Positions 819 through 62,525 of a DNA stretch of 64,000 bases are shown piece after piece. The notes below the pieces were generated by a model. The model was given only the letters and a program-made list of their open reading frames with translations. It was not told the DNA's origin and did no database searches. The position numbers were made by a program, and so were the translations under genes. The stretch comes from Geosiphon pyriformis uo1 (taxonomy: Eukaryota > Fungi > Glomeromycota), in NCBI GenBank assembly GCA_016748015.1, contig JAAOMT010000586.1, forward strand, positions 124,001 through 188,000, written 5' to 3'. The stretch's first letter is position 1. Every line of letters begins with the position of its first letter.

Positions 819-1711
819 TGTTACTCATAGAAATATAAGAAATATATTAGCATAATTATTAGCCAATCAGAAGTAAGTGTAGTAAATATAGAATTTCAGG
901 ATTCCTCTCAGGAATTACAAGATTCCAGGAATTTTAGGATTCCCAATGAGGAATTGCAGGATTCCAGAATTGCAGGATTCCTCTCAAAGAAATCACAGAA
1001 TTCCAGGAATTCCAGGATTCCTGTCATGAAGAATCAAGAAATTGAAGAATCCCAATTATGTATATATAGCAGTAGTGTTAGAAACAGAAAAAACAGAATC
1101 GATACCACAGAATCCTTAGCCAAGAAACCAATTATCAAATAAATAATTATTCCATATCTCAATCCACTATTCACTATCAACACTTCATGTTAATAGTAAT
1201 TGCTATTTAACCACGCTGGAACAATAGCTCTTGATCACGGCTATTGACAAGATACTAACAGACCAAATTGCCTTGGCTTATTTTCTTCATTTTCTTTATT
1301 TTTATTTTCTTTATTTTATTTCCTTTCTTTCTTTGATTTTGTTGTTGTATACTAATTGATTAAAAGATTAAGCGCTGAGTTATTAATGTCAAGGATAGCC
1401 TGGTAAAAGACCCAGAAATAAGGGTAAGATTTTATATATATTATTGGATAGCTTACCAGAAGGACATGACTGCCAGACTAAATCTGGCCACCATGCTGAG
1501 AAAGAAATTAGGAAAACCACTTGAAGATACAACCACTATCAACCTTATTGAATCTCTGTTCATTATACAAAGAACTCCACAACAAAAATCTTCAGATCAA
1601 CCAAAACCTTCAGATACCATACCTTCTGCACATTATCTATGAAAGTAGCTTTTGAGCACCAAGTTACGGGTTTGTTATTCAATTCCACAACAGAAATAAT
1701 CACCTATAACA
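819..1711 (+). repeat. 5' LTR of element B
   Basis: TGTTACTCA...CCTATAACA, direct repeat of the 3' LTR, followed by TT+TGG PBS. Confidence 0.95.
861..1070 (+). promoter_or_regulatory. Putative U3 promoter of family A LTR: CCAAT box, GGAATTCC/TTCCAG(G)AA repeat array, TATA-like box
   Basis: AGCCAATCAG 861-870, degenerate 8-9 nt repeats ~890-1040, TATATATAG 1061-1069. Same layout in the other family A LTRs. Confidence 0.55.
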
Positions 1712-1730
1712 TTTGGTGCTCCCTGTGAGG
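1712..1730 (+). promoter_or_regulatory. Primer binding site of element B (TGGTGCTCCCTGTGAGG)
   Basis: 2-nt spacer then TGG, complementary to a tRNA 3' end ...CCUCACAGGGAGCACCA. Resembles elongator tRNA-Met or tRNA-Ile(UAU); identity unverified. Confidence 0.85.
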
Positions 1731-1773
1731 TATAATCCTACAGAGAACCAACACCGACAACACCAAACCAAAA

Positions 1774-4700
1774 GTGGCAGAATCAGAAATTATAGGAGCA
1801 AACCATTTAGAATTCGCAAAATTTTTATTTTAACACTATTGTCAATACTTGGGATTAAACCACAATCATATATCTGCTGAATCAGCCTTCAATTTCTACA
1901 TCAATGAAAAAATTTTCTCTTTATTAGGAACACTAGTGAATATTGAATCAGCAAGAGAAACTTTCTATAAGGAATTAATTCAAAACACCAATCTACCAAC
2001 AAACCATAATTTTGCATTCATCATCACTAAGATCAACAAAGAAATTGAACACCACACTCAACAAAGATATCCAACTACATACACTAGTAAAGGCAAGGGA
2101 AAATTATAAATACCAGCAGTAACACCCAAAAAAATACAGCCACCTGCTTGGAAGAAAAACAGAGTTGAATCCCTAAGCAACCCATTCTACCACTATACAC
2201 CTGGAAGCACCATCAACATATCATCAACAGACGCATTTTCATCAACTGCGACATCAGCATTTGGACAATTTTTATTCCAAAGTAGACAAAGGAAAACAGA
2301 ATTGTTAGGACCATATGGCGAATACTTTGAAGGATTTAATTCGCAATCATCAACCCCATCAGGACTTCAATCACCACCACCTCCACCAGATTTCGGAATC
2401 TCTGATCTGTGGAAAGCAGCAGAATCAGAAAAGGAGGAAGAAAAATCAGAGGATCAAGAATTTACTTACCAGCACCCGATCACTGAAAACCTGGAAGTTG
2501 AAACCCCAAACCTTCAAACTCAGCAACAGTTAGAAAATCCAGAAATCAAAACTCCGAATATTCGAATGCCACCAAATCAAAGAAATCAAAAACCTGAATT
2601 AATTAATCAGCAAAACTTACCTTCAATAATCTTCATCAATCAACTGCCGATTAATTCCATAGCCGCCATACAGCAGCCACTTTAGCTACCACCCCAACAG
2701 CCAGGACAATAACAACTGCTTCAACAGCCACCACAACCACCTAACTTAGATCCAATGGCCTATGCACCAATTGCAAAACTTGACAACTTTATGGGCAAAA
2801 AAGATGACGCTCAAATATGGCTGAATAATGTAGAAAAGGCCATCACAGCCAATAGATGGAATGACACTTGAGTAATGCAAGCCATTCTCTACTTTCTCAA
2901 AGATACTGCCAATTCATGGTACCAGAGCTTGATTAATAAACCACAAGATTTTAATGCCTTCAAAGCGGAATTCCTAAGATACTTCAGCAACAATAACAGC
3001 ATCAATCGCCTAGTTAATACATTCACCACCATGAAACAAGGAGAAACTGAAGCAGTTACCACTTACCTGGGATGCTTCTATTGAAACCTACACCAAATTT
3101 AAGCAATTGATGCCAACTATTTCACAGCACCACAGATACTCAATCAGTTTATCTGTGGCCTGTGCAGTAGCATCTTGCAACATGTACGTCCGTTGCATCC
3201 AGGCACCCTTCAAGATGCAGTCACATGCACCAGAGATTTTGAATCTGCTGAGTCAGAGACTAACTATGCCCAAGCCATTAATCTAGTAATGAACAGATCA
3301 TCTGAATTGGATTCCAAATTGGAGAAGTTCAGTGAATTAATCAATAAGAGATTAGAAGGATACTTAGCTGACAATCATGCCATTTATCAGCCTCCACAAT
3401 GACGCAATAATCAAAGAAACTCTAATTGTGTCCAAAATCAATCACATCCATCTTCATCAACCAATTGACAGTGGCAACAGAAAACGCATATCTGCCACTA
3501 TTGTGGTAAACAAAGACATATCCAAATTGATTGTTGCCAGCGTTTAAATAACCAACGATCAAAAAATCAATATCGAAACCCCGATTGCCAGTTCCAAACT
3601 TTGAATCAGTACCCAAATCAAAACCCACCCACTTACCTACTAGTAACGCAGTCATTAGTCTATCAGTCTCCAGTATATCAACCTCTGATTTATTAGCCGC
3701 AGCCACAAGTAATATATCAACCACAGCCACAAATAATCTATCAACCCCAACAGATCCAAACACTGCCCCAAAGCTTACTACCCAACGGAACTCAAAGACC
3801 GAAAATGACTCAACAGAGCTGGAGATCGGCGATAGTAGTCCATCAACCGATCCCCAGTTCTTCACAGCAATCATCTGGATTATGCCAGCAGAATTTGGGT
3901 ACTGGTCAACTCCAGAACTCGAATTTCCAGAACTATTTAAGTCTTCTGGTCACTCCAGAAGACGCTTTAACCAATAACCCGGCATTTACCCAAAAACAAT
4001 TACTTACCAGTAATATCTTACCCACTACCATCATCGAAGACAAGTCATTGGCTGCTATCTTCTCATTCGAATTTGAGGAAACAGCTGCAATGCCATTATT
4101 TAGTGGAGCCGCTCTTGAAGCCAAACTAATTACCACGATGTACACCAACGCCAAAGTAAAAGGACAATCCATCAAATTAATTCTGGACAGCAGTTCTGCA
4201 GACAGCATAATCACAAGACAACTCATGGATCAATTAGGTTGCCGAGTTGATCAAGCTGCCAGCGCCAGAATCATTACAGCCAATGGAGTGACCAAAACTC
4301 CAATCAGCAAAATCAACGACTTTCCTTTTGAAGTCAATGACATCATGACTCTCATTAAAGTTCTAGTGATGAAAACCACTCAATACCAAGCTCTCGTTGG
4401 TAATGACTGGCTATCCAAAGTCAATGCAACGTTAGACTGGAACACCCAGGAACTCCAGCTAATGTATCAGGGCCAACACATACATGTCTTGGCCATGTGT
4501 GGCCACTTTAAAACTCCTCCAAGAGAGAAACTATTGATCAAACTGGAGGAGAAGAAAGAAAAACCTACCTGAGAAGCCTACCAAGTGTCATGGGCAGACA
4601 AAAAGCACAACAAACTACCGCCAATACTCTCTTGGGATGACAGCAACAAGAGAAAAGGGAAACAGAAGGAAGAACTTATCTGGAAAACTGATGACCTGAC

Positions 4701-7700
4701 ATGGACCGACAATGACAAGAGCAAACCGATGTCAAACTGGGAATGGGAAGAGAACAAAGAAAATAAAGGAAAAGAGAAAGAAGAAGAGACCACCCAAACC
4801 ACAACTATTTATAATACCTACACTATATCACAATAATCTACCTATCGTCGACCTAAGCTTATATGCATTGATTGCAGCAAGAAATTGTCATCAATGGGTG
4901 CATGCTGTGGGGACGATGAGGAATATTCAACGGCAACTAGGTTTTATTGCCACCCATGCGTTCTTGAACACTTTGGAAAACCAAAATGAGTAGGAAAATG
5001 GGACAATCAGCCATGCTTAGCTTGTGAAAAGACTCTCTTGGACGAAAAAATGTGGCATGACATTCCCGGACGGGGAGGAACGTGCAACATAGAGTGTCAA
5101 TACATGATTCTGATCAGCAACTGGATTAAAAAGGGGACACCCATCAAAGCCACTTGGCAAAGAGCAGTGTGACAATTAGACAGTTGTCCACATAACAACG
5201 ACGAAATTTGGAGAATGGCAACTGCCAAAATTGAAGGCATGTTGCCAGAAGAAATCCGGACAATTAAAAACAACCCACCAGAACCCATCAAGCTCAACTG
5301 GGACGCAGAGCCAGTTATAAATTTTCTAAAACCAGAAGAGTTCTATAAACACTACCAAAACTTGGCACCCACTAGAGAAAAGCAAGAACAATGGCTAGCA
5401 CAGTTAAATACAAAACTGTGTTGTCATTGTTTAATTCTCAGTAACTTCAAATATTGTGACGATTGTGACCTTATTTACAATCCACCACCATGCATGATCT
5501 ACTCAATCCTTGAAGAAGAAGAACCAATCAGCAGCTGTGCGTCGGAATCAGAATTGCTGATCAATCGCAATTCAGACTTTGACAATGATGATGAAAACAA
5601 CGGTTCTAGCTCTGTTTAAAATGGCAATGACGACAAAAACAATTCAGACTCAAATTCAAAACCTGATTTAAACTATAAACAATATATTGCACTACCAGAT
5701 CTCTCCAAAGAACAAGAGTTGAAATGATATAGTAACAATGGTGAAGGTATTATGCTAGAATGTATGCATGATATGGATGCAGGGTTTGATCTGAAATATC
5801 CAGGAAAAGTTGCCATCAAATTAGAACTGCATTCACACATCTGCATTGATTTGAAAATAACACTAGAGATTCCGGCAACAACAATAGTTCAATTAGCATT
5901 TAGGAGTAGCTTAGCAAAAAAAGGGATCAATATAAGAGGAGGAATAATTGACATGGGATATGTAGGAAATATCATCACCATGCTACAAAATGATTCAGAA
6001 AAGGCCTATATAATAGAGCCCAATGAAAAGATAGCACAGGCAATATTCTTGCCTCTGATTAGAGTAGCTCAGTTAGTGTCAGTAAGAAAGAGGGAGAAAT
6101 TAGGAATAACAGTAAGAGGGATACAAGGATTCGGATCAACGGGTAGAACAGATGTACTAGTTAATATGGCGAAAGAAGAAATTGTTGGCCAAAGAAAAAT
6201 TATCTCAACTGGTCAAGCTATTTCCATTCCACCATATAGCCAGTACATGTTAACAATAGAAAAGAAGGAAAAGGAGCAAGAACAGATTTTTGAAGCAGAA
6301 GCAACCCTTTGTGAATCAGAAGAGATTGGGTTGATCAATCTCCACATACCAGCCAAAAGCTATAGCAGCATAAAAATTCCCATCTACAACAATACTGACA
6401 ATGTCATCAGCATACCAGAAGGAACTACCATCGGATATTTAACCACAGAAATAGAAGACCAACCACCAAACCTCATTCCAGACTTTCCACAACTTTGTGG
6501 ATATGTTGACATCACATCACAAACAATCTATAAATAAGACGAATGTTATTTGCTCCAACCAGAACAATTGAAACAAATGAACATGGGAAACTTAGATCCA
6601 CTTCAATGTATGCAGCTCAAGATGTTACTCAACAATTTCAATGACATCTTTGCCAGCAAAAATGAGTTTGGCTGAACTGACATCATCCAGCATCAGATCA
6701 AGACTGGAGATGCAATGCCAATCAAACAAAGAGCATACAGAGTACCACCAGCCAGCCACGAGATTATTCATCAAGAAATAAACAGAATGCTTGACAACGG
6801 GCTGATTCAATTATTAATGAGTCCATAGTCATCACCAGTAGTACTCGTTCGAAAGAAAAATAGAAAAATCCAGTTTTGTGTAGACTACAAAAAACTCAAT
6901 GGTGTAACTTGTGGAGACAGTTATCCAACTCCATGAATACAAGAATTATTTGATGCTTTCAGTGGGAACAAATGGTTCTCTACATTAGATTTGGACAGTG
7001 GTTATTGGCAAGTAGCCATGAATCCAGCTGACAAAGAGAAGACAGCATTTACTACTAGAGAAGGGAATTTTGAATTTGAAGTGATGCCATTCGGCTTAAC
7101 CAATGCCCCAGCAACTTTCCAACGGCTAATAGAAATCGTTTATACTGGCTTATTGTAGAAATCAGTAGTTGTATACTTGGACGACACCAATGTATTCTCA
7201 AAGAAGTTTGATGATCATCTTCATCATTTTCAATAAGTGTTCGAAAAACTAAGAAGAGCAGGACTAAAGTTAAATGCAACAAAGTGCTTCTTTGACAAGA
7301 CAGAACTCAAATTCTTGGAACACATAGTCAGCAAAGATGGCATCAAAACAGATCCAGAGAAAATAGAGATAGTAAAAAACTTTCCAGTGCTGACCAATAT
7401 AACAGAACTGAAATCATTCTTGGGATTAACTAGTTATTATTGTCATTTTATCAAAAACTTTTCTAAGATAGCGCAGCCACTCAATCAATTACAAAACAAA
7501 AATGCAAAATATGAATGGACAGAAAGTCAACAAGAAGCTTTTGATATTCTGAGGAAAAAACTCATCCAAGCTCTAGTACTGATCTATCCAGATTACAGCA
7601 AACCATTTATTATCACTACTGATGCATCTGGCCAAGCATTGGGAGCAGTATTATTTCAGAGAGGACCAGACGGCAGAAAACATCCAGTAGCATATGCCAG

Positions 7701-7976
7701 CAGAGGTTTAACACCAGCTGAAAAGAATTATGGAACACCAGAACAAGAACACTTAGCAATATACTGGGCTGTCATGAAATGGAAAGAATACTTGAGCCAG
7801 AAGTTTGAAGTATACACAGATCACAAGAGATTAACATCACTCCAAAAACAAGAATTTTGAGATGAAAGACAGTTAAGATGAAAAATGGCACTTACACTAT
7901 ACAATTATACTATACATTACAAAAAAAAAAAGACAATGGAAATGCTGACAGTTTATTACAAATAAGACAAATCTAA
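1774..7976 (+). pseudogene. gag-pol: Element B ORF1: N-extension, capsid, CCHC, aspartic protease, Cys-rich module, dUTPase, RT, RNase H (one frame, broken by transition stops)
   Basis: Track fragments at 1849, 2302, 2875, 3175, 3805, 4585, 5215, 5752 and 7237 share one frame. Motifs: CHYCGKQRHIQIDC, LILDS(G)S, ALVGNDWL, YLDD (~7173-7185), TDAS, YTDHK, NAD.L..IRQI*. Confidence 0.92.
5752..6150 (+). CDS. dut: dUTPase domain within element B ORF1
   Basis: All five trimeric dUTPase motifs in order: DAGFDL, RSSLA, GGIIDxGYVG, EKIAQ, RGIQGFGSTG. Confidence 0.92.
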
Positions 7977-8039
7977 GAACATTTCAACCCAAAAATATAA
8001 TAAAACCAGAACAATACCAATGGAAAAATACAACAAAAG

Positions 8040-9422
8040 ATGAACATACAAAAATATCAACAATTGCAACATTATCTAAACACTCAACAGTTCAAGGAGA
8101 ATTTATCTCATACGGAATGAAGAAGTATCAAACAACAATCAAAATATTTTATCACTCACCAAAATATACTTTATCGGAAAAATAGAAAGGATTCAGATCA
8201 ACCAACCAGAGTAATTACGGAGCCAGAAAAAGATACAATATTATTCAACATGCACTCAAATCCAACAGCAGGACATTTTCACAAAGAAGCAACCATGGAA
8301 AGAACTAGAAAAAGATACTATTGGCCATCAATGTACCCAGACATCATTCAATATGTTCAAAATTGTGATGCTTGTCAGCGAAGAGGAGAAACAAGATCCA
8401 GTGAACTATTAAGACCAATCAAAGTGAGACAACCATTTGATCGTATGGAAATTGATTTAGTTGGATCATTAACAATCACCAGCAGAGAAAACAGATACAT
8501 AGCAGTAGCTATGAACTATCTCACTAAATGGCCAGAGGCAAAAGCAATTCAAAGAGCAGATGCAGAATCCATTGCCGAATTCGTTCATCAGAATTTGATT
8601 TGTTGACATGGATGTCCAAAAGAATTATTATCAGACCAAGGAACTCATTTTGTGAACAGAACATTAACAGAATTGAGCCAAAGATTCGGAATCAAAAGAC
8701 CATTATCATTACCATACTATCCACAAACCAATGGATTAGTAGAAAGATTCAACCAAACATTGTGTGAAGCAATAGCCAAGCTCAGTCAAGAAAACCAGAA
8801 CAATTGAGATTTGTTCATACCATCAGTACTATTTGCTTATCAGACAATGAAACAGGATACTACACAAGCAACACCATTTGAATTAGTATATGGGAGAATA
8901 GCAATGTTACCAGTAGAAAGAGAAATTAATACATATCCAGCTGAACCAATAACAGAGAAAAATTTTCAAGAAACATTGCTGAAAAGAACATATGACTTAA
9001 TGGAAACATTGGAAAACAAACAAAGAAGAGCAGCTGATAATATCCAAAAGTCACAAAAAACACAGAAAGAAAGACACAATAGTCAACTACCAGACAAACC
9101 AGTTGAATTTAAGATCGGAGACAAAATATTACTACATTGTACCAAAGCAGAAAAACAATGGAGTGGAAAATTTGACCCCAAATGGGATGGACCATTTCAC
9201 ATAGAAAAAATTCTAGGAAATGGAGCTTACAAATTAAGATTGGATAACAAAATTTTAACCAAAGCAGCACATGGAGATCGACTGAAATCATATCACAACA
9301 TCACATTACTATCTACCAGTAATATTCCACAATTAAGAGTACAGAGAATACTAGTCCAACCAGATGAAATTCCATGAGATCTGGAACCAATCATTATTAT
9401 CAACAACAACATGTTAAATTGA
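8040..9422 (+). pseudogene. int: Element B ORF2: stand-alone integrase (HHCC, DDE core, GPF module, no chromodomain)
   Basis: ATG 8040 follows the RNase H stop. MHSNPTAGHF...CDACQ, IDLVG, SDQG, ERFN, WDGPF. Confidence 0.9.
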
Positions 9423-9446
9423 TCCATCAAAAGAATATATAAAGAC

Positions 9447-10106
9447 ATGGTAGACATGACAGGAAATATCAAAAAAATGGAAATTACAGACAACATTCAC
9501 TCACTAGCACAACAACTCTTTCAATTAATCCAACACTAGGAAATGGAGATTACAATCAATCAACAAACCATTTGATATCAAGATACTAGAAAAACATTTC
9601 AACTCAGAACACAAAAGAAAACTGAAAATACTATGGACAAAATCATGGCGAAAGTAAAATTAGCAATAAAAAAATCAACAAAAGAGTCACTATATTAAGA
9701 GTTGACTAAAGAAACTTGGAATTGGTGGATACAACAATTTCCACGAAACTATTGTTATTTTTACTTGGGACAACATGTAAATATCCAGAATCTATATATG
9801 GATAAAACAAAGTGATTATTCGACAAAAGAATACTACAACAATTAAAACATTTTGTGAGAAAGAACAATTTATCCACACAAGCCCAAGCCATATACCAAA
9901 TACACACAGTATTTCAAGATAAACCAGAAATATTGCTCAATAGAGCAATGAATAGGGTTATCAGTAATCAATTGGGAAAAATCACCAATGCTCAATTTGA
10001 AGAATTACAGACCCAAATAACACAAGTAATTCTTGAAAACGAAATCCAGAAAATACTTCAAAAGAGGGAATTACATGAGTTAGATTTCAATGGAGCTCAA
10101 TATTAA
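9447..10106 (+). pseudogene. Element B ORF3, unknown ~220 aa protein
   Basis: One frame with a few stops explicable as transitions; homologous to regions in A, C, F, G, H and I; ends LDFNGAQY* overlapping the PPT. Confidence 0.8.
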
Positions 10107-10119
10107 AAGGAGAGAATAA
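10105..10119 (+). promoter_or_regulatory. Polypurine tract of element B
   Basis: AAAAGGAGAGAATAA immediately before the 3' LTR TG. Confidence 0.85.
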
Positions 10120-10328
10120 TGTTACTCATAGAAATATAGGAAATATATTAGCATAATTATTAGCCAATCAGAAATAAGTGTAGTAAATGTGAAATTCCAG
10201 GATTCCTCTCAGGAATTGCAGAATTTTAAGAATTTCAAGATTCCCAATGAGGAATTGCAGGATTCCAGAATTCCAGGATTTTTCTCAAAGGAATCATAGG
10301 ATTCCAAGAATTCCAGGATTTCTGTCGT

Positions 10329-11060
10329 TGTTACGGGATGGTTTTCTTGTTATATTTAATTGCTGATATCCCGCTTTAATTGCAATCAGTCTTTCGTGAG
10401 TTCCTCAATTCTATTTGTGTGATAATGTCACTGTTACACTGAAGGCTTTCTTTTTACTGTTGCGATGTAAGTTATTCTTTAATTCTTGATTGTTGTGTGT
10501 GTTTATGTACTCCTTCTCAGAGGCTGAACTGAAATCTACCCACTGTCTGGGGTCTTCTCTGAGGCTATCCTTGCAATTGCCTGATGTGTTTCTCTAATCT
10601 AGAAACACAGAATGTTAATGGTCTTTAGCGCTTTTCTAATTCTTACAATAAAGCTTTTATCAATNNNNNNNNNNNNNNNNNNNNNNNNNNNNNNNNNNNN
10701 NNNNNNNNNNNNNNNNNNNNNNNNNNNNNNNNNNNNNNNNNNNNNNNNNNNNNNNNNNNNNNNNNNNNNNNNNNNNNNNNNNNNNNNNNNNNNNNNNNNN
10801 NNNNNNNNNNNNNNNNNNNNNNNNNNNNNNNNNNNNNNNNNNNNNNGAAAATACTTTCTTTTTGATATTTCAACCTGGTGCTTGCTGCTATCACCAGTTG
10901 GTGTTGGCTGCTATTGTGAACTGGTGCTTGCCACTATCGCGAGATGGTGTTTGCTACTATGTTAATCATTACCTTTCTAAGATTATTACTGTGCTATATT
11001 ATGATTGAATAGTTTGTATTATTTTTATGATTCTTTTTGCTAAATTCTTAAACCGTAACA
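10329..11060 (-). mobile_element. Family H LTR insertion (apparent solo LTR spanning an assembly gap), TSD TCGT
   Basis: Reverse complement of 51582-52447; TCGT at 10325-10328 and 11061-11064; N-gap 10665-10846. Confidence 0.9.
10665..10846. other. Assembly gap (182 N)
   Basis: Run of N. Confidence 1.
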
Positions 11061-11779
11061 TCGTGAAGAATCAAGAAATTGAGAAATCCCAATTATGTAT
11101 ATATAGCAGTAATGTTAGAAACAGAAAAGACAGAATTGATATCACAGAATTCTTAGCCAAGAAACCAATCATCAAATAAATAATTATTCCATATCTCAAT
11201 CCATTATTCACTATCAACACTTCATGTTAATAGTAATTGCTACTTAACCACGCTAGAACAATAGCTCTTGATCATGACTATTGACGAGATACTAACAGAC
11301 CAAATTGCCTTGGCTTATTTTCTTTATTTTCTTTATTTTTATTTTTTTTATTTTATTTCCTTTCTTTCTTTGATTTTGTTGTTGTATACTAATTGATTAA
11401 AAGATTAAACACTGAGTTATTGACGTCAAGGATAGCCTGGTAAAAGACCCAGAAATAAAAGTAGGATTTTATATATATTATCAGATAGCTTACTAAAAGG
11501 ACACGACTGCCAGACTAAATCTGGCCATCATGCTGAGAAAAAAATTGGGAAAACCACTTGAGGATACAACCACTATCAATCTTATTGAATCTCTGTCCAT
11601 TATACAAAGAACTCCACAACAAAAACCTTCAGATCAACCAAAACCTTCAGATACCATATCTTCTGTACATCATCCATGAAAGTAGCTTTTGAGCACCAAG
11701 TTACAGGTTTGTTATTCAATTCCACAACAGAAATAATCACCTGTAACATCGATCATGTCTTTATATACTCTTTTGTTGT

Positions 11780-13162
11780 TCAATTTTATGTATTTGGTTT
11801 AATGATTATGATTGGTTCTCAGTCTCGTGGAATCTTATCTGGTTGGACTAATATTTTTTGTACTCCCAGTTGTGGAATGTTATTGGTAGATGCTGATGCT
11901 ATCTGGTAATATGGTTTTAGTCAATTACCATGTGCTGCTTTGGCTAAGATTCTGTTATCTAGTCTTAATTTGTAAGCTTTATTTTCTAGAATTTCTTTTA
12001 TGTGAAATGGTCTGTCCCATTTGGGGTCAAATTTCCCACTCCATTGTTTTTCTGCTTTAGTACGATGTAAAAGTACTTTGTCTCTAATCTTGAATTCAAC
12101 TGGTCTGTCTGGTAGTTGGTTATCATGCCTCTTTTTTTGTTTCTCTTGTGTCTTTTTAATATTATCAGCTGTTCTTCGTCACTTGTTTTCTAGAGTTTTC
12201 ATTAAATCATATGTTCTTTTTAGTAACATTTTCTGAAAATTGTCTACAATTATTGGTTCTGTTAGATAAGTATTGACTTCTATTTCAACTGGTAGTGTTG
12301 CTGTTCTACCATATACTAATTTAAATGGTGTTGCTTGTGTAGTATCTTGCTTTATTGTCCAATAAGCCAATAGTATGGATGGTATAAACAAATCCCATTC
12401 GTCTTGGTTTTCTTGGCTGAGTTTTGCTATTGCTTCACACAATGTTCTATTAAATCTTTCAACTAATTCATTGGTTTGTGGATGGTATGGTGATGATAGT
12501 GGTCTCTTAATTCCGAATCTTTGGCTTATTTTTGCTAATGTTTTATTCACAAAATAGGTTTCTTGGTCTGATAATAGTTCTTTTGGACATCCATGTCAAC
12601 AAATTAAATCTTGATGAACGAATTTGGCAACAGATTCTGCATTTGCTCTTTGAATTGCTTTTGCTTTTGGCCATTTTGTAAGGTAGTTCATGGCTACTGC
12701 AATATATCTGTTGCCTCCACTGATAATTGTCAATGGTTCAACTAAATTAATTCCAATGTGGTCAAATGGTTGTTCCACTTTGATTGGTTTCAATGGTTTG
12801 CTGGGTCTTGTTCCTTCTCTTCTTTGACAAGCATCACAATTTTGTACATATTATATGATGTCTGGATACATTGATGGCCAATAGTATCTCTTTCTGGTTC
12901 TTTCCATGGTTGCTTCTTTATGAAAATGTTCTGCAGTTGGATCTGAGTGCATGTTGAACAGTATTGTTCCCTTTTCTGGTTCTGTAATTACTCTGGTTGG
13001 CTGATCTGAATCTTTTCTATTTTTCTGATAAAGTATATTTTGGTAGGTGATAAAATATTTGGATTGTTGTTTGATTCTCTTTTGTTCCAGTTGAGATAAT
13101 TTCTTCTTGAACTGTTAAGTATCTATATAATGTTGAAGTTGTTGATATTTTTGTGGGTTCAT
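11780..13162 (-). pseudogene. int: Element A ORF2 integrase
   Basis: ATG at 13162 (MNPQKYQQLQHY); fragments 12596..12793 and 12179..12550 with INLV, PYHPQTN, ERFN. Confidence 0.88.
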
Positions 13163-13223
13163 CTTTTGTTATATTTTCGTGAGTATTGTTTTGGTTTTGT
13201 TATATTTTTGGGTTGAAATGTCC

Positions 13224-16200
13224 TTAGATTTGTCTTATTCGTGATAAACCATCAGCATTTCTGTTGTCTTTTCTTTTTTTATAATGTATAGAATAATTAT
13301 ATAGTGCGAGTGCCATTTTCCATCTCCAAATTCTTGTTTTTGGAGTGATGTTAATCCTTTGTAATCTGTGTACACTTCAAACTTCTGGCTCAAGTATTTT
13401 TTCCATTTCATGACTGCCCAGTATATTGCTAAGTGTTCTTGTTCTAGTGTTCCATAGTTCTTTTCGGCTGGTGTTAAACCTTTGCTGGCATATGCTACTA
13501 GATGTTCTCTGTCATCTGGTCCTTTCTGAGATAGTACGGCTCCTAATGCTTGGCTGAATGCATCAGTGGTAATGATGAATAGTTTGCTGTAATCTGAATA
13601 GATCAGTACTGGAACTTAAATGAGCTTTCTTTTCAGAATATCAAAAGCTTCTTGTTGACTTTCTGTCCATTCATATTTTGTATTCTTGGTTTGCAGTTGG
13701 TTGAATGGCTGCACTATCTTGGAAAAGTTCTTAATAAAACATCGATAGTAGCTGGCAAATCCCAAAAATGATTTCAGTTCTGTCATATTGGTCAGCACTG
13801 GAAAGTTCTTTACTATCTCTATTTTCTCTAGATCCGTTTTAATGCCGTCTTTGCTGCCTATGTGTCCCAAGAATTTTAGTTCTGTTTTGCCAAAGAAGCA
13901 CTTTGTTGCATTTAACTTTAGTCCTGCTCTTCTTAGTCTTTTGAACACTTGTTGAAAATGATAAAGATGATCATCAAATGTTTTTGAGAATACATTGGTG
14001 TCATCCAAGTATACAACTACTGATTTCCACAATAAGCCAGTATAAACAATTTCCATTAGCTGTTGGAAAGTGGCTGGTGCATTGGTTAAGCCAAATGGCA
14101 TAACTTCAAACTCAAAGTTTTCCTCTCTTGTGATAAATGCTGTTTTTTCTTTGTTGGCTGGATCCATAGCTACTTGCTAATAACCACTATCTAAGTCTAA
14201 CATTGAGAATCATTTGTTTCTACCAAAAGCGTCAAATAGTTTTTGTATCCATGGAGTTGGATAGCTGTCTCCACAAGTTACACTATTTAGTTTTCTATAA
14301 TCTACACAAAATTGGATCTTTCCATTCTTTTTATGGACAAGTACTACTGGTGATGACCATGGGTTCATTGATGGCTGAATTAACTCATTGTCAAGTATTC
14401 GGTTGATCTCTTGACAGATGATTTCATGGCTGGCTGGTGGTACTCTGTATGCATGCTGTTTGATTGGCATTGCATCTCCAGTCTTGATTTGATGTTGAAT
14501 GATGTCAGTTCTGCCAAATTTGTTTTCACTGGCAAAAATGTTATTGAAATTGTTGAGTAACATCTTGAGCTGCATATATTGTAGTGGGTCTAGATTTCTT
14601 ATATTCATTTGTTCTAATTGTTCTGGTTAGAACAAATAACATTTGTCTTGTCTATAGATTGTTTGTAATGTGATGTCAACATATTTACAAAGCTGTAAAA
14701 AGTCTGGAATGGGGTTTGGTGGTTGATCCTCTATTTCAGGGTTTAAGTATCCCATGGTAGTTCCAGCTGATATCACTATGACATTTTCTGTGTTGTTGTA
14801 GATGGGAATTTTGATGTGGCTGTAATCTTTGGCTGGTATGTGGAGATTGATGAGTCCAATCTCTTCTGATTTGCAAAAGGTCAGTTCTGCTACAAAAATC
14901 TGATTCTGTTCTTTTTCCTTCCTTTTTATTGCTAACATATACTGACTATATGATGGAATAGAAATAGCTTGATCAGTTGAGATAATTTCTTTTTGGCCAA
15001 CAATTTTTTCTTTCACCATATTAGGTATATCTATTCTACCTGTTGATCCAAATTCTTGTATTCCTCTTGTTGTTATCTCTAATTCCTCTCTTGTTCCCAC
15101 TGACACTAAGCTAGCTACTTTGATTAGTAGCAGGAATATGGCCTGTGCTATCTTTTTATTTGGCTCAATAGTGTAAGTCTTTTCTGAATCATTTTGTAGC
15201 ATAGCACTGATATTTCCTGTATATCCTGCATCCACTATTCCCCCTCTAATATTAATCCTTTTTTTCACTAAACTACTCCTAAATGCTAACAGAACCATGG
15301 TTGTTGCTGGGATCTCTAGAGCTATTCTCAGATCAATGCATACTTGCGCATTTGGCTCCAATTTGATGGCATCTTTTTTTGGATATCTCAGATTAAACCC
15401 TGCATTAGTATTATGCATGCATTCTGGCATGATACCTTCCCCATTGTTACTATACTATTTCAACTCCTGCTCCTTGGAGAGATCTGGTAGTGCAATATAT
15501 TGTTCATAGTTTGTATTGGAGTTTGGATCTGAGTTGGAATTATTGTTGTTGTTATTGCTATTTTGAATGGAGCTTGAATCATTGTTGTCATTGTTGTTGT
15601 CAGAGTTTGAATCACAATTGATCAGCGATTCTGATTCTGATGTGCAATTGCTAATTGGTTTTTCTTTTTTAGAGATTGTGTAGATCATGCGTGGTGGTGA
15701 ATCGTAAATGAGGTTACACTTATTACAATATTGAAAGTCACATGGAATTAAACAGTAGTCACATAGCTGGGTGTTTAGCTGTGCTAAGCACTCTTCTTGT
15801 TTTTCTCTTATGGGTGCTAGTTACTAGTAGTGCTCATGAAATTCCTCTGAATTGTCTTTGATGTTGCCAAAAACATTGAAAGTTTGGACATATTCAGGCT
15901 TAGGTAGAAATAGTGGGTTGTTTTTAATTTCTCTCAGCTCCTCTGTTGTAGCATCTTCTGATATAGCATATGCCATTCTCCAGATCTCATCTTCATTGTG
16001 TGAGTATCCTTCTAGGCATCTTAATGCTTGCTTCCAGACGTTGTTGATGGGAGTTTCCTTTCATACCCAGTGATTGATCAGAATAGTGTATTGGCATGTC
16101 TTGTTATATGCTTCTCCTCTTCCAGAAATGTTTTTCCACATCCCTTCATCTAAGAGGGTATTTTCACAAGCTAAACACAAGATACTGTCCCATTTTCCTA

Positions 16201-21153: not shown

Positions 21154-22147
21154 TGTTACTAGAGATTTTTGGTCTCTTTTTTTGAATGTTTTTAATGTCT
21201 GTTTGCTGTGAATTTACATTTATTGAAAGTTATTAAATCTTTGATAACTGAATTTATTTTCAAATTATCTCTTATAATTTGAACTACTGAATTTATAAGT
21301 AAAATAGCCAATTTCATGCTAGTTACTTTGTATAGTTATGTTGTGTAAATGTCAACTTTTTTTCAGAAATTATTTGTCTAAAAGTTCACTAAAAATGTGT
21401 AGTTACTTTGCTGTAAAAGTTAACTCTTCTACAGGAATCTTATCTGTAAACTATTCTAATAAATATAATAAAAAAAATAAAAAAAAATGTAAAAAAAATA
21501 GAATTTTCCAAAAAAAACATTTTCTATTCAGGCCTGAAGTTACTAACAAATTTTACTGAAATTGGTAGCTAATCAATTTCAAAAATGTTAATTGAGTTTA
21601 AAAAATTTCAAGTATAATAATTAAAGATTTTTGGATTTTTAAATATTTGATTTTTTTTTATTTTAATTTGTAAAAGTGTGTAAAAAATGATTGATTCTAA
21701 TTAAAATATCTAAAATAAGATATATTTTCTTGAAAAGAAAAGCTTTTTTTTATACAACTTGTTGTAGTACTAGTTTTTGAACTTGTACTTTTTTCTTTGT
21801 TATTGTTTTTAATGAACTAAAAATACATTTTGATAAACTAAAAATATATTTCAGCAAACTACAAGTTATTTTAATGAACTATTAATTATTTTGGTAAATT
21901 ATTTATTATTTCAGCAAATTTTTACAAATTTTAACAAATTCTTAAATATTAAGTAATTTAGAGTATTGTGTAATTTAATCATCTTAATTTCTATAGTACA
22001 AATCGGATTATTAATTAAATAGTAATATTTAATAATTTGATTAAATAATAAGTAATAATTGAAATGATTAATAATATATGCTAATTAATAATAAAAATTA
22101 TAAAGATAATTTCATGCTAGTTAATAGCTAAAATTCTACTAGTAACA
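21154..22147 (-). repeat. 3' LTR of element C (family D)
   Basis: TGTTACTAGAG...CTAGTAACA, collinear with element I LTRs. Confidence 0.85.
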
Positions 22148-25100
22148 TAATTTTCTACTCAAAACTGAACTCTATTGAAATCCAATTACTATCTGTAATA
22201 TTAAGAAAGTAATCCAAAATAATTGTAGTAATTTGGTCTGAAAATTGTTAAAATTTTAGTTTTGTAAATTTGCCAATATATTGAATCTTCATTGATTAGA
22301 GTATTGAATTTTATAGGATGTTTTCACAAGTGTTAAACAAATCATAGAGTCTAAAAGCTGCTTTTAATTTGTAACAAGTGTTTGTTAATTCAGCTGCTGT
22401 TTTAAATTCATTGTGAATTTGTTTTTGTATAGCTTCACAAATGAGATTTGTTGCTTTAAGTTCCAGTTTTTGTTTATAAAGTATTTTTCCAATATGAAAA
22501 TATTTATAGATAAGAATATGTTCATTGTTCTGTTTATTGAGAAATAGTAAAAGTTTTTGTTAAGTTGTAACATTTGGTAAAATATTGATAGGAGCAATTA
22601 AAAGGTTTTCTTTTAAGATTTGCTTTAAAAGTTCTGATAATTAATTTTCAGAATAATTTCTTGTTTTTTTTTATAGAAATGATAATTTTGCGAATTAAGT
22701 ACTATTAGTATTGTAGTTTTTTTTTAAATATAACTAATTTGACTTCTATTAATTATTATGGATAAGTTAGAAAGTATTCTCAATGTTAACATTAATTTTT
22801 AAAATATTTGCTAAATGTTTTGAGAAATAATTATGATAAAAAGTAACAAACTAAAAATAAAAATTTAAAAAAAATAAAGAAATTATTTTTGAATATAGCA
22901 GTTTTATATGTTTTTGGATTTGGGTATTTTTTGTAATTATTTACTATTTTTGTTTTATGTTTGTGTATTACTAAAAAAAGTTATAATGTTAAATTAAGTG
23001 TTTTAAGTTTAATTATTATTTTATTACAACTATTGGTTTTAAGTTTCAAAAAATATCTTCAGGATTAATTAAAAAAGATTATATACCAATTTGTGAAATT
23101 AATAGTTCAAGATTTGTTCTAAAGTAATAGTGTTTTAATTGATTTCTATGTATAATTTTTGCTAGAACTTTGGTATTAAGTCTTTACTTGTATAATCTAT
23201 TGCTTAAAACTTTATGAATATGGAATGATCTATCTTATTTATGTTCAAATTTCTTACTTTATTGTTTTTCAGTCTTAATTCTGTGTAAAAGAACTTTATT
23301 TCCAATTTTAAATTCATTGAAGACTGGTAGCAGTTTATTATTATAACATTTTTTTGTTAAGCTTAAAAGTATTTAATATGGATGGTTGCAATTTGTTGTT
23401 TTCCTTCCAATATACTGAGAAGAATATAAACTCTTTGTTAAAGTGTTTTTTGAAAGTTTTTTTCATTAATTGGTTGCACAGAGTATGTTTCCACAGTAAA
23501 ATTAATTAGTAATATTGCTGTTTTTCTATAGATTTAATTAAAAGATATGTGTTTTGTGGTATTTTATTTTAATGTTCTGTATACTAGTAATATTAATAGA
23601 ATAAAAATATTCTATTCTTGCTCAAAATTAGTTGAGACTTTGGCTAATAATTCACACAATGTTTTGTTAAAACATTCTACTAATCTATTTGTTTATAGAT
23701 AATATAGTAATGATAAAAATTATTTAACATTGAACTGTTTACAAATTTTTTGTATTAAGTTGTTTACAAAGTGTATTTTTTGATCAAATAAGAATTCAAT
23801 TAGGTATCTATGTCTACAAATGATGTTTTTTATAGATAAAATTTGCTACTAATTTTGCATCTGCTTTTTAAATGGCTTTGACTTTGGACTATTTGATAAA
23901 ATAGTCTACAGCAACTACAATGTAATAATTTTCTTGAGTAGTAATAAATAATAGTCCAACTAAATTGATTTCTATTTTGTCAAAAGGTTGTCCAACTTTG
24001 ATTGAATTTAAAAGTTCAGTAAATCAAATTCCTTTTTTTTTTGACAACTATCATATGATTCTATATACTGTCAAATGTCTTAATACATATAAGACCAAAA
24101 ATAATGTTTTAATGTTTGCTGTATTGTGCTGTTTTTTTTCAGATATGCTAATGAAAAGTCTGTGTACATGTTATATAAGATTGTTTTTTTTTTGTTAGAC
24201 TAATCTGAATAGATTTGTTAAATTTTGGCAGTTTTGATAATAAATTTTGTTATGATGCAGAAAATATTGTTTAAATTGGTATTGTAATCAGTGTTTTTTA
24301 GCTGGAAATCAGTTTTCTGGTATTTGGGAAGTCTCTAGATAATTTTTAATATTGTTGTAGTTTTTGGGGTGCATTGTTTGTTAATTTATTATTTGTTGTT
24401 GAGCTGTATATTATAATAAAATTGTGTTGGTATTAATTTTGTTTTATCCTTGAAAAGCTGTCAATGTTTGTGTAATTTACTTGGTTTATAGTAAACAATA
24501 AATTTGTAATCAGTAAAAAATCAGTTCATTAGAATTGTTTGGTACTAAGTTTAGAACTCTTTTTGTTGAGCCATTTAAAGCCAAGATTATCAGTTATAAT
24601 GTTAAAAATTCAAAACTGTTTTGGAGATATTGTTAAAAGTATTTGAGAGCTTAGATAATGACTGTTGCTTTTAATTCTGTTGAATCATACTTAAGTTTTG
24701 TTGGTTTGAATGTTCTACTAACATAAGCAATTACTTGCTTATTGCCATTGTTATAAAATAGCACTAAAAATTATGTATAAAGCATTGGTGGCTAACTGAA
24801 ACTTTTTATTGAAATCTAAATATGTGAGAATTAGGACTGTAATAAGTTTTTTTTTAAGAATGTTAAATGCTTGTTGTTAAGCTTGTGTTCATTGATATTT
24901 CACATTTTTGTTGGTTAAATAGTTAAGTGGTTTGGCAATTTTGGAGAATTTTTTGATAAATTTTTGGTAATAAGAAACTAATTCTACAAATCTTCTTAGT
25001 TCTGTTGTGTTTTGGGGAATTTTGAAATTTTTAACAGCACTAATTGTTTCTGGATAGGATTAAACTCTATTTTTGCTAACAATATGTTCAAGAAAGATTA

Positions 25101-27539: not shown

Positions 27540-28330
27540 TTAGAATTGAGCTCCTGTGAAATCATATGTATCTGTTCCTATGTCTTTGTTCATATAATGT
27601 TCAATAATTGCATCGAGTATTGTTTATCATAAGTTTTTGAACTGTTGATTGGTAATTTATTCTATATTGTTAACTGTTATCATTTTTATAGATTCATACA
27701 ATAGTACATTTGGACAATGTTAGAAAGTGGCATATAGTCAGTATGTTGCTTTGTAATATAGGGTCAGATTGATTCTTCCTATGAATTATTCTACTTGTTG
27801 CATTGCTTTTTTGTTAAAAGTTTTTTGGCTGAAGTCTCTATATGGCATCTTTAAGTCTAATTGTTCATTTACTTTGTAGAACCAATAAGCTGGAGGAAGT
27901 TTTTCTTTCCATTCCTTTGCATTGTCTAGTGTCTATTCCTCTGTTTCAGGGAAATTGATCTTATAAGTTAAAGCTTCTTTGATTTCTTCTAGCTTGGGGA
28001 CCAAGTATCTTCTTTTATAAACTTTTTCTCATTCCTCCATGCTTTCTTCAAGCCCTGCCCGAAATGATTTAATTCTTTTCTGTAAAATTCCTTTCTTGGA
28101 TGAAGTGTAGGAATGGGAACAGTTAGTTCTAATTAAACTTGTGCCCATCTTTTTCTTGTTCCTATCTTTATAGCATATTTCTTTTCTATTGATTATCACT
28201 TCTATTTGAGCAAAAGATTGTTGAATTGTGTTAAATAGTTGTTTCGAAAGTTGTAGAATTTGATCTGACAAGTCTATGTTGAAAGTTCTATCATTTTTTG
28301 CTGTTTTTTAAATACTATATATATTTGAAT
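27540..28330 (-). pseudogene. Element F ORF3
   Basis: LSDQILQLSKQLF...IEVIINRKEICY...; ends YDFTGAQF* at the PPT. Confidence 0.75.
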
Positions 28331-28357: not shown

Positions 28358-29721
28358 CTATGTTTTGATGACAATGATTGGTTTCAAATTTCGTGGTATA
28401 TTTTCTGGTCTGATTAATGAAATTTGTGTTTCTAGCTGAAGTATTAATGATGATGATTCCTGTTTTGTATGATAAATTTTTAACCAATTTCTATGCACTA
28501 CTTTTTTTAAAATCCTGTTTTCTAATTGTAATTTGTAAGCACCATTTCCTAAAGCTTTGTGTATGTGGAATAGACCATTCTATTTTGGATCAAATTTTCT
28601 ACTCCACTGTTTCTCAGCTTTTGTACGATGTAATAGTATTTAGTCTCCAATTTTGAATTCTATTGGTTGTTCTAATAAGTGGTTATTATGTTTTTTTTTT
28701 GTTCTTAAGTGTTACTAATATTGTCAGCTGCTATTTTATGATTGTTTTCCAATGTTTCCATTAGCTGGTACGTTCTTTGGCATAAGGTATCTTCAAAATT
28801 TTCTTTATTGATAGTTTTTGTTAAGTAGGATATTATTTCTTGTTCAATAGATAATGTTGTTTTTCTTCCATAGACTAATTTGAATGATATAAACTGTATC
28901 ATATTTTGCTTTAATGTTTGATATGCAAAGAGTATTGAAGGTATGAATAAGTCCCATTCTTGTTCATTTTCATAACTTATTTTTGCTAATGCTTCACATA
29001 ATGTCCTGTTAAACCATTCCACCAGTCCATTTGTCTGTGGATAATATGGTGACAATAGAAGTTGTTTTATACCAAAATGTTGACTCAATTCAGTTAACAT
29101 AGTATTGACAAAATGTGTTCCTTGGTCCAATAACAGTTCTTTTGGGCATCCATGTCTGCATATTAGATTTTGGTGTATGAATTCAGCTACTGTTTTGGCA
29201 TTAGCTACTTGGATTGCTCTGGCTTCTGGCCATTTTGTAAGGTAGTTTATAGCCACAGCAATATAACAATTTTCTTTAAATGTAATTGAAAGAGGACTAA
29301 CCAAATTGATCCCAATTCTACAAAATAAATTTCCAACTGGAATGGGTCAAAGTGGTTCCGTTATCCTGGCTCCTTCTCTTCACTGGCATAAGTTACAATT
29401 GAGAACATATTTGAAGATATCCTTATATATCATAGGCCAATAGTATAGATTTGTTGTTCTTTCCAGAGTCACATTTTTGTTGAAGTGTCTTGCAGTTGGG
29501 TTGGAATGCATACTATATAATATAGCTTCTTTTTCACTGTCCTTAATCAATTGTTGTGGGATAATGTGGTTTCATCATTTTCAACAATAGAGTTGGTCAT
29601 TTTGAATAAAGTAATTTTGTGCTTGTTTCTATATGGTATTTTGTTCCTGTTGAGATAATATCTCCTTGAAATATAGTATTGATAAGTATTAATGTAATTA
29701 CTGATATGTAAATGTGTCCAT
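28358..29721 (-). pseudogene. int: Element F ORF2 integrase
   Basis: ATG 29721 lies 10 nt after the RH stop; 28705..29304 carries the DDE core (LDQG, EWFN). Confidence 0.87.
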
Positions 29722-29731
29722 GGATCTGAAA

Positions 29732-32700
29732 TTAGGTTTGTGGTATCCTTGACAAGCTGTTGACATTGGTGTTTTTGGATCCTTCCTTGTAATAAACTTT
29801 GAGTGAGAATTGTTGCAGATAAGTACTTCATCTCACATATTTTTCTTCTAGCTGTAAGTTATTGAGTAACCAGATGAGTTCCTTATAATCAGTATATAGG
29901 TCAAATAGTTGTCTAAGGTAGTGTTTCTTTGTTTGTACAGCCTAATAAATGGCAAGACATTCCAAATCCATTGTGCTATATATTTTTTTTGCTGGACTGG
30001 TACTACAACTAATATAGGCGATTGGATGTTCTCTTTTGTCTAGTCTTATTTGTAATAATACAGCTTCTAGTGCATTTTTTGATGCATTTGTAGTAACAAT
30101 GAATCATTTGGTAAAGTCGGGATAGATCAGTATTGGAGATGTGATTAATTGCTGTTTAAGATAGTCAAAGACTTTTTGTTGCTTTTTTTTCTACAGATAT
30201 GGCACATATTTTGACAACAAGTGATGAAAAGGTTTTGTAATAGTTGAGAATTCTTTGACAAATTGGTGGTAGTATCCAGCCAGTCTTAAAAATCTTTGTA
30301 GCTCTTGTAGATTGATTGGGGCTAAAAAATTCTTGACTTTTTGGATTTTGTCTGGATCAGGTTTTATTCCGTTCTTGCCAATCACATGTCTTAAGAATTT
30401 CAGTTTGGTTTTTCCGAAGAAGCATTTATCAGGGTTGAGTTTCAATCTGGCACCTTAAAGGCATTTGAAGACTTGTTGTAGGTGAAGCAAATGTTTGTCA
30501 AATATTTCCAAGAAGACATTGGTGTTGTCTAAGTATACTACAACTGATTTCCACAAAATTCCTTTATACATGATATTCATAAGATGTTAGAATATAGCGG
30601 AAGCATTGCACAGTCTGAAAAGCATCATGTTAAATTCAAAATTTTCATCTCGGGTGGTGAATGCCATTTTCTCTTTGTCTTTTGGATCCATTTTGACTTG
30701 CCAATATCTACTGGCTAGATCTAATGACAAGAATCATTTCTTTTTTCCTAAGTTGTCTAGGATTTCTTGGATAAGAGGAGTGGAATAGCTATCTCTTCAG
30801 GTAATGCTATTTAATTTTTGATAATCCATGCAGAATCATATCTTTCCATTTTTTTTGGTGACTAAGACCACTGAAGAGGACCAAGAGCTTAATAATTCTT
30901 TAATTAGTCTATTGTTAAGCATTCATTCTACTTCTTGCTTAATCAGATTATTGTCAGATGGAGGTATTTGGTAAGCTCACTGCTTAATGGGTTGAGCATC
31001 TCCAGTGTCAATCTGGTGTTTTATGATGTCAGTGTGTCTGAACTTATTTTTATTGACAAAGACATTGGCATATTGGTTCAATAGAATCTTAAGTTGCATT
31101 TGCTATAAAGTGCTTAGGTTTTCCAAATTGAGTTTATTAATTTTTTTTGACATGAACAAGTAACTTTCCTTTGGCAGGTTCCATACTTGTGAGGTAATAT
31201 CACAGAACAAGAACAATTGAATAAAATCTGAAATAAGCTGGAGTTTTTTTGGATTCTGAATATTTGAAAATATGGAACCAATAAGAATTCTTTCAGGAAT
31301 TTCAATAATGTTTTTGGTCAGATTGTGGATGGGAATTTTGAAGTGTTTATGAGCTTTGGCTGGTAAGTACAGGTTAACAACATCAGCTAGTAAGCAGATT
31401 TTGAGATTGGCCTCGAAAACTAGTGCTTGGTTTTGAATCTTTTGGTTGACTTTGAGAATATACTGCCAATAAGAAGGGATGGAAATGATGGTGTTGGTGT
31501 AGATAAGTTCTACCTGGTCACTATCTTCTACCATAAAATTGACCATTATGTTGTCTCTTCTACTTGAGCCAAACCCCTTGATTTTTTGAGCAGTAAGGCC
31601 TAATTCTTCTTGGGTGGTAACTGGGACTAGTTGGGGTATTTTGATTAAAGGTAGAAAAATGGCTTGGGCAATTTTTTTGTGAGATTTGATCTTGTAGAGT
31701 TTGTCTGAATTGTTCTGTAGTATCACAATATTACTCATAGAATATAGGAAGTATATTAGCATATAAATTAGCCAATTAGAAGTAGACATAGTAAATGTGA
31801 AATTCCAGGATTCCTCTCAAAGAAATTGCAGGATTCCAGGAATTTCAGGATTCTTGTATGAGGAATTGCAGAATTCCAGGAATTCCAGAATTCCAGGAAT
31901 TCCAGAATTCCTGACATAAAGAATTGAGGAATTGAGGAATCTCAAATACATATATATAGCAGTAGTATCAGAAGTTAGAAAATTAGTCAACGAGACTCAG
32001 AGTTAATTGATTTGCAGAGTTAATTAGATTCATAGAATCAATTAGACTTGCAAATTATAATTATTAAAAATACAAAAAAAAAAAACAAACTCTTTTAGTT
32101 TAGACCTCTCAGTTTAAATTTAATCTAAGCAACATTCCAGTTCTCAATCATCAAATAAATAATTATTTCATATCTCAACCCACTCTTCACTATCAACACT
32201 TCATGTTGATAGTAATTGATACTTAACCACACTGGAACAATAGCTCTTGATCACAGCTATTGATGAGATACTAACATACCAAATTGCCTTGGCTTATTTT
32301 TTCTATTTTCTTTATTTTTATTTTCTTTATTTTATTTTCTTTCTTTCTTTGATTTTGTTGTTGTATATTAATTGATTAAAAAATTAAGTACTGAGTTATT
32401 GATGTCAAGGATAGCCTGGTAAAAGACCTAAAAATAAGGGTAGGATTTTATATATTATCAGATAGCTTACCAGAAAGGCACGACTGCCAGACTAAATCCG
32501 GCCACCACACTAAGAAAGAAATTGGGAAAACTCTTGGAAAGATACATCTACTATCAACACTATTAAATCTCTGTTCATTATACAAAGAACTCCATCAAAA
32601 CCTTCAGATACAACCCTTATAAAACATCATCAATAGAAGTAGCTTTTGAGCACCAAGTTACAGATTTGTTATTCAATTCAACAGCAGAAATAATCACCTG

Positions 32701-40547: not shown

Positions 40548-40576
40548 CTTTGGTTATGTTTTGGGTTAAAATATTC

Positions 40577-55245: not shown

Positions 55246-55285
55246 TGTTTGTTGTTTTGTTGTTGTTAATTCAAATGAGTGTTGG

Positions 55286-62496: not shown

Positions 62497-62525
62497 AAAT
62501 CACCAACCCACCCACAACAACAACA

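Follow-up and report, generated by a model that had tools for sequence, protein, structure and literature searches.

In LTR retroelements of the textbook type, fusion of Gag to Pol sets the amount of integrase (IN) and carries the enzyme into the particle. The ICTV profile of the Metaviridae places IN inside pol (PMC7879559). According to passages of PMC5972666, LINE-1 ORF2 is reached across a 63-nt spacer, for which reinitiation has been proposed, and ORF2 of SART1 follows an overlapping stop/start (UAAUG, per a title cited there); the same passages give victoriviruses and hypoviruses as stop/restart precedents and CaMV as a case of reinitiation. Foamy viruses, in passages of PMC7019881, produce a retroelement enzyme, the whole of Pol, without a Gag tether, and Ginger1, in passages of PMC2836005, encodes a gypsy-like integrase of about 400 aa with its own starting Met. 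A separate IN is not described in the passages of PMC3248453, PMC2864245, PMC13468544, PMC6839031 and PMC5035971, nor in those of bioRxiv 10.1101/2021.03.30.436303 and 10.64898/2026.05.21.726589. Searches by title and abstract start, with most subscription journals, Repbase, GyDB and Dfam lying outside their reach, found no paper on gypsy elements with a separate IN.

The window analysed here, a stretch of 64,000 nt from Geosiphon pyriformis, is AT-rich and CpG-depleted (observed/expected 0.2) and contains seven copies of such elements, denoted A, B, C, F, G, H and I. Of these, B is a full-length element running from LTR to LTR:

819 to 1711, plus strand: 5' LTR, 893 bp, with a TCGA target-site duplication just 5' of it
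1714 to 1730, plus strand: PBS-like site, starting with TGG, 2 nt past the 5' LTR
1702 (approximate) to 7976, plus strand: decayed gag-PR-dUTPase-RT-RNase H frame (Pfam), ending with TAA at 7974-7976
7977 to 8039, plus strand: unstructured, A/C-rich spacer of 63 nt
8040 to 9422, plus strand: stand-alone IN ORF with H2C2, rve and SH3_Tf2-1 and with four internal TGA
9477 to 10110, plus strand: decayed ORF3 (tblastn of the ORF3 of locus L013: 9477-10031, E 2.6e-8)
10107 to 10119, plus strand: polypurine tract
10120 to 11748, plus strand: 3' LTR, split by an insertion at 10329-11060, then TCGA

The two LTRs of B share 92.8% identity over 893 columns, and 63 of the 64 differences are transitions. 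Pfam detected Retrotrans_gag, aspartyl protease, dUTPase, RVT_1 and RT_RNaseH in the gag-pol frame; the position of the dUTPase between protease (PR) and RT is that of PosPlaTy3-5 as described in passages of PMC2864245. Further in-frame ATGs are available to ORF3 of B at 9447 and 9456, and a Pfam search of this ORF gave no match. The insertion in the 3' LTR measures 732 bp, includes an assembly gap and is later than the LTR. The whole of B (819-11748) is seemingly nested in A in opposite orientation, the 3' end of A appearing to resume at 816-1. Between protease and dUTPase, the window elements have a long Cys-rich, acidic stretch (4600-5700 in B) without a Pfam match.

Likeness to Ty3/gypsy elements extends to LTRs, PBS, polypurine tract, Gag and the domain order PR-RT-RH-IN. 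The internal region of B lies between 893-bp LTRs with a 4-bp duplication, a TGG-starting PBS-like site and a purine tract before the 3' LTR are present, and a gag capsid, the domain order and an RVT_1-type RT were found by Pfam in B, A and I. The difference is that IN forms a separate ORF, followed by ORF3 of 130-230 aa without a Pfam family. Since IN lies outside pol, in 7/7 window copies as well as in all 49 relatives with a resolved junction (see below), the split elements are Ty3/gypsy variants by descent rather than canonical members. A chromodomain, as found in chromoviruses, was detected neither in the three window INs scanned nor in the Pfam lists of 120 homologues.

The remaining six copies have the following junctions between RNase H and IN:

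13160 to 13226, minus strand: copy A; TAA at 13226, 61 nt, ATG at 13162
24372 to 24435, minus strand: copy C; TAA at 24435, 58 nt, ATG at 24374; ORF3 remnant at about 22143-22598
29719 to 29734, minus strand: copy F; TAA at 29734, 10 nt, ATG at 29721; ORF3 remnant at about 27573-27896
40545 to 40579, minus strand: copy G; TAA at 40579, 29 nt, ATG at 40547; ORF3 remnant at about 38507-38857
55243 to 55288, minus strand: copy I; TAA at 55288, 40 nt, ATG at 55245; ORF3 remnant at about 53036-53584
62494 to 62528, plus strand: copy H; TAA at 62494, 29 nt, ATG at 62526; ORF3 remnant at about 63789-63992

The original prediction, that IN in these elements is a separate ORF behind the stop of RT-RNase H, is confirmed. 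All seven RNase H frames end with TAA four residues 3' of an xAD-LSR-like motif (LLQ, LSR, FSR, LSR, LSQ, LSR and LSK in the order B, A, C, F, G, I, H), the spacers up to the new ATG occur in all three phases (0, 1, 1, 1, 2, 1, 2 in the same order), and A occupies position -3 of the ATG in 6/7 copies. Two details had been drawn too broadly. The IN N-terminus M-x4-Y-x2-L is homologous throughout, with L replaced by I in copy C and by F in copy G; a C/A-rich spacer is present in six copies (A+C 0.72-0.97) and absent from F (A+C 0.5). All seven spacers fold at -1.1 kcal/mol or weaker, and that of B contains one upstream ATG. Junction identity sorts the copies into four groups (A/B/G, 76-91%; C/I, 65-72%; F; H). 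The last RNase H codons of copies B and A contain frameshifts. Random stops number 24 per approximately 2,050 codons in the gag-pol frame of A, and likewise in that of B, with TAA accounting for 8 and 10 of them; at this frequency, decay is not expected to yield a shared TAA in four independent families. Between 7948 and 8048, no position, those of the TAA among them, had an alternative letter reaching 5% in 814 contigs from one sequencing run; the test is weak, because the contigs are short and rare variants are dropped.

A search with the IN of B retrieved 547 proteins (267-853 aa, E 1e-20 or better). Among the 120 homologues listed (390-451 aa), 101 start exactly at position 1 of a profile built from 42 of them, that is, at the same Met, and none reaches more than 10 residues beyond the profile start. 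Named eukaryotic sources were Rhizophagus irregularis and, in further searches, R. clarus and Cetraspora pellucida; going by these names, the host would be a Glomeromycotina fungus. The split-IN elements represent a large gypsy group, likely one of mycorrhizal fungi. Viral contigs yielded merely distant integrases (23-31% identity) or short matches for 27 loci.

The best 80 of the 547 metagenome loci were fetched; as the scan was seeded with split INs, this set samples only this lineage. RT-RNase H was found upstream on the same contig in 50 of the 80, and the IN start was resolved in 49; the 30 loci without an upstream RT match on the contig and L052, with its IN start not resolved, were left out. 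All 49 resolved junctions are split and none is fused, with both frames open in 25 (RT-RH at least 430 codons, IN at least 395). The pol stop is TAA in 25, TAG in 14 and TGA in 10 of them; stop and IN start overlap or lie within 2 nt in nine loci, are 3-170 nt apart in 32 and farther apart in eight. The overlaps, such as ATGA in L070, are scattered over several branches of the tree, and pol ends anywhere from 1 to 404 residues past the LSR motif across lineages. Terminal direct repeats of 95-100% identity flank intact ORFs in element order in L010, L012, L037, L055 and L065. The intact, LTR-flanked relatives retain the stop and a frame-free gap and show no constant in-frame linker; this supports the earlier proposal that IN needs an expression route of its own. 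A packaging route of its own, also proposed earlier, may be required as well.

Two further traits of the pol region were observed among the relatives. Pol runs 256-404 residues past RNase H in L015, L037, L046, L053, L059, L061, L062 and L065, the extension comprising an acidic stretch and a Cys/His-rich motif without a Pfam match in the two scanned; these loci belong to the clade that carries the RNA motif described below. An in-frame TGA followed by CTA or CCA lies between gag-protease and RT in seven of eight loci checked (L026:2882-2884, L036, L032, L055, L057, L076, L054), which likely represents programmed readthrough sited after protease, not after gag.

A search for longer proteins yielded seven above 40% identity, five of them gene models from fungi and two of them from metagenomes. 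The gene models P0230-P0232, P0234 and P0235 (Rhizophagus, Cetraspora) fuse RT-RH or gag with IN; in four of them the AD-LSR end of RNase H is missing and the join points differ, for which reason we read these four as predicted introns across the stop. P0233 and P0238 look like true fusions. In an IN tree of 166 rows (seven of 173 omitted for short coverage), all 52 split INs and three gene models fall into one group (SH-like 92); in an IQ-TREE analysis of 34 rows, a branch (SH-aLRT 84) sets the 18 split INs apart from the remaining rows, of which P0233 and P0232 come next. The grouping of the split INs is thus moderately supported, and a single origin of the split seems likely. The RT tree, in which fused rows were thinned and 150 of 245 rows retained, does not resolve its base and joins P0233 to P0398, which lacks IN (97), so that P0233 may be either ancestral or re-fused. 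The nearest rows outside the split group are fused RT-RH-IN proteins in both the IN and the RT trees, which contain no named reference elements.

Behind IN, an ORF of at least 90 aa lies within 400 nt in 30 of the 47 loci with room for it, and 28 of these ORFs can be aligned as one family (ORF3; for example, L030:1915-2364). The family comprises 605 clusters at 50% identity, with a median length of 142 aa; the ORF3 proteins measure 130-230 aa. Pfam gave no credible match for the 28 members, and a search against the Atlas gave none. The predicted model is all-helical and confident (pLDDT 92.6); Foldseek found no match at E <=0.001 in PDB and BFVD, and the best VIA Z was 5.6; a new fold is not implied. 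ORF3 remnants follow IN in window copies B, C, F, G, H and I, and another lies at 238-792. Read from its ORFs, the element is polycistronic, with gag-pol, then IN, then ORF3. A different type of ORF occurs behind IN at L010:6546-6941 and L045:1524-1886, with a C-terminal helix-turn-helix in L010. The R. irregularis gene model P0147 seems to fuse IN with ORF3-like sequence, as an artefact or by a real splice.

As to how IN would be expressed, the spacers are informative. Across 32 spacers 20-170 nt long, none of the 64 triplets is as depleted as ATG (7 found, 26.1 expected from dinucleotide shuffles; 4 versus 16.1 in a thinned set of 20), L075 being excluded from the counts for its broken pol extension. 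Each half of the spacer is depleted (2 versus 15.3 and 3 versus 17.1; 28 spacers, mononucleotide shuffles), while the 120 nt past ORF3 are not (83 versus 70.7), and ATG density amounts to 12-33 per kb in the last 600 nt of pol, compared with 2.7 per kb in the spacers. The N-x-D codons some 20-30 nt 5' of the usual stop show no clear avoidance of ATG formation (AAT 31/47 versus 358/482 in the background; GAT 25/32 versus 424/554). Because both halves are depleted and the pre-stop codons do not clearly avoid ATG, the zone free of AUG starts with the pol stop, and it does so whether pol ends 1 or 404 residues past LSR. These sequence counts show selection against ATG between pol stop and IN start, with P values that are optimistic because related loci are not independent. 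A purine at -3 is found at 43 of 48 IN ATGs, as compared to 162 of 274 internal Met codons. Small ORFs that open shortly after the stop are present in long spacers, and in L057, L058 and L060 such an ORF terminates at the IN start or beyond it. In L057 (6969-8635), pol and IN are linked by a NUDIX/dNK (deoxynucleoside-kinase) ORF, TAATG, a 127-aa ORF and an 11-nt overlap with IN; a 44-aa spacer ORF of L060 ends on the IN start with ATGA, and L032 and L058 have a homologous small spacer ORF in common. In L033 and L080, what could be taken for a long spacer seems instead to be a pol extension that has been broken.

Reinitiation with short scanning predicts AUG-free spacers, overlaps and relay ORFs, which makes it the best supported of the four routes that had been listed originally, and on balance we think that IN is probably made by termination-reinitiation on the full-length RNA. 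Some ribosomes would remain on the RNA at the pol stop and restart at an overlapping AUG, or scan an AUG-free spacer of 10-170 nt to the IN AUG. IN made on genomic RNA might then bind that RNA in cis and enter the particle without a Gag tether. The layout of a long first ORF, a stop and a second enzyme ORF is shared with LINE-1 and SART1 (passages of PMC5972666), which differ in being non-LTR elements with an RT/endonuclease as the downstream product and no capsid for packaging. According to the same passages, stop and start also overlap or lie close together in victori-, hypo- and caliciviruses, and CaMV, in which reinitiation is driven by TAV, has a tightly spaced ORF chain and tolerates gaps of up to 700 nt. 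Unlike in caliciviruses, UGGGA occurs upstream in just 3 of 55 junctions and, unlike in CaMV, no TAV-like transactivator was found here, ORF3 being without a fold match. Several observations speak against reinitiation: GTA is depleted almost as strongly as ATG (7 versus 20.5) and equally strongly in the thinned set (4 versus 16.5), a pattern that the 5' UTR of a separate, capped mRNA might show as well; the spacers between IN and ORF3 show no ATG depletion (23 versus 28.3, n = 25); upstream ATGs are present in L035, L055, L061, L071, L074 and L079, and a uORF overruns the IN start in L035, L061 and L079; no cis-element is common to the whole lineage. Moreover, the in-frame stop between protease and RT in several relatives would allow few ribosomes to reach the pol stop, leaving IN scarce.

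The joint depletion of ATG and GTA would fit a cap-proximal UTR. Transcription from an internal promoter within the 3' end of pol, which would yield a capped subgenomic IN(-ORF3) mRNA with the spacer as its 5' UTR, is possible although rather unlikely. Foamy virus Pol, translated from a separate mRNA (passages of PMC7019881), is a precedent, with the difference that there the whole of Pol is detached and here IN alone. The conserved spacer motifs (repeated AACGGA, GGAY-ACCC and TTGAT) right 5' of the IN ATG in L001, L003-L010, L020, L029 and L044, which yielded no consensus structure (14 AACGGA-type sequences), could be DNA elements in this clade, and the many upstream ATGs in long spacers of some elements also agree with such an mRNA. 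However, its start site would have to match the pol stop although pol ends 1-404 residues past LSR, and the stop/start overlaps and relay ORFs would be left unexplained.

A sister clade carries a roughly 40-nt motif whose end lies a few to about 30 nt 5' of the IN ATG (for example, L046:4463-4503). It was found at 21 loci by pattern and at 22 by a model with scores of at least 48 bits; 18 of these 22 had served to build the model. In these 18 sequences, 98.5% of cells pair, and compensatory changes occur in 5 of 11 pairs; the covariation score, which relatedness inflates, was reached by 0 of 500 shuffles, and slid controls were also far off. RNAalifold recovered the two outer helices and not the 2-bp inner helix. 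The motif appears to be a new three-way junction: Rfam gave no match up to E 1 for nine loci, exact matches to the pattern were absent (0) from viral and prokaryotic genome contigs, and literature look-ups for the motif and for ORF3 found nothing. Judged by consensus features and Rfam, none of hammerhead, twister and a GT-AG mini-intron fitted this RNA. The motif is missing from the window junctions, the best match in the window scoring 17.6 bits at a site unrelated to a junction, so that the putative cis-control it reveals at the start of IN applies to the lineage and not to the window copies. An IRES, unstructured and A/C-rich in the window clade and structured as the three-way junction in the sister clade, would accommodate this covarying element at 22 loci, the two ATGs tolerated inside it in L061, and the weakly folded window spacers, six of seven of them A/C-rich. 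We nevertheless regard it as unlikely, as the motif is missing from the window and most clades, an IRES would not require the 5' half of the spacer to be poor in ATG, and overlap junctions have no spacer. The TMV-omega-like CAA leader that had been suggested fits the window clade with its unstructured spacers, not the lineage, in which many spacers are U-rich or overlapping.

Splicing that re-fuses RNase H with IN, or joins the IN ATG to a 5' leader, could be read from the five Rhizophagus and Cetraspora gene models mentioned above; it is very unlikely in view of the missing RNase H ends and differing joins in four of them, as for predicted introns, and of the spacers themselves. YAG, contrary to what splicing into the spacer would entail, is not enriched in the last 40 nt (23 of 46 spacers, 27.8 expected); 17 of the 46 lack it entirely, and window spacers H and I (2/7) contain no AG at all. 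Decay as the origin of the stop, by a change of CAA or CGA in dead copies whose Pol had been fused in the normal way, can practically be dismissed, as had been argued from the window: although the window is CpG-depleted and rich in transition-born stops and the close relative P0233 is a real-looking fusion, the TAA is shared by four independent families, the IN Met is conserved, and the split in intact relatives involves each of the three stop codons and every phase, the 25 loci with both frames open refuting decay.

A stand-alone gypsy-like integrase is also the product of Ginger1, whose TIRs and lack of RT differ from the direct LTRs and the upstream RT-RH (50 of 80 loci) seen here. OTU- or Ulp1-bearing proteins, as expected for Ginger1 (passages of PMC2836005), are among the near IN matches, and P0237 starts near the same position; Pfam found neither domain in B, A and I. 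In the trees the Ginger1-like proteins fall outside the split group, farther from it than the fused P0233; with weak support near those rows (68), a Ginger1 origin of the split IN is neither shown nor excluded. Tentatively, and as a reading we would call doubtful, the lineage may be a polycistronic, CaMV-like LTR retrotransposon in which IN and the helical ORF3 would be made by relay reinitiation, with ORF3 or the three-way-junction RNA driving the restart or delivering IN to the genome. In the extreme, IN would never be packaged and would act as a free transposase meeting cDNA ends in the shared cytoplasm of the coenocytic fungus, a living Gypsy-to-Ginger intermediate.

The fused gene models in the genomes of mycorrhizal fungi look like predicted introns across the stop. 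Element finders built on the assumption of a single pol ORF would likely miss or mislabel split-IN elements. The lineage offers a new RNA motif, a protein family of 605 clusters and putative natural signals for reinitiation in eukaryotes. Since this large lineage, with intact and recent-looking copies, has no Gag-Pol link to IN, integrase can be supplied in another way, and the need for IN packaging becomes a testable question.
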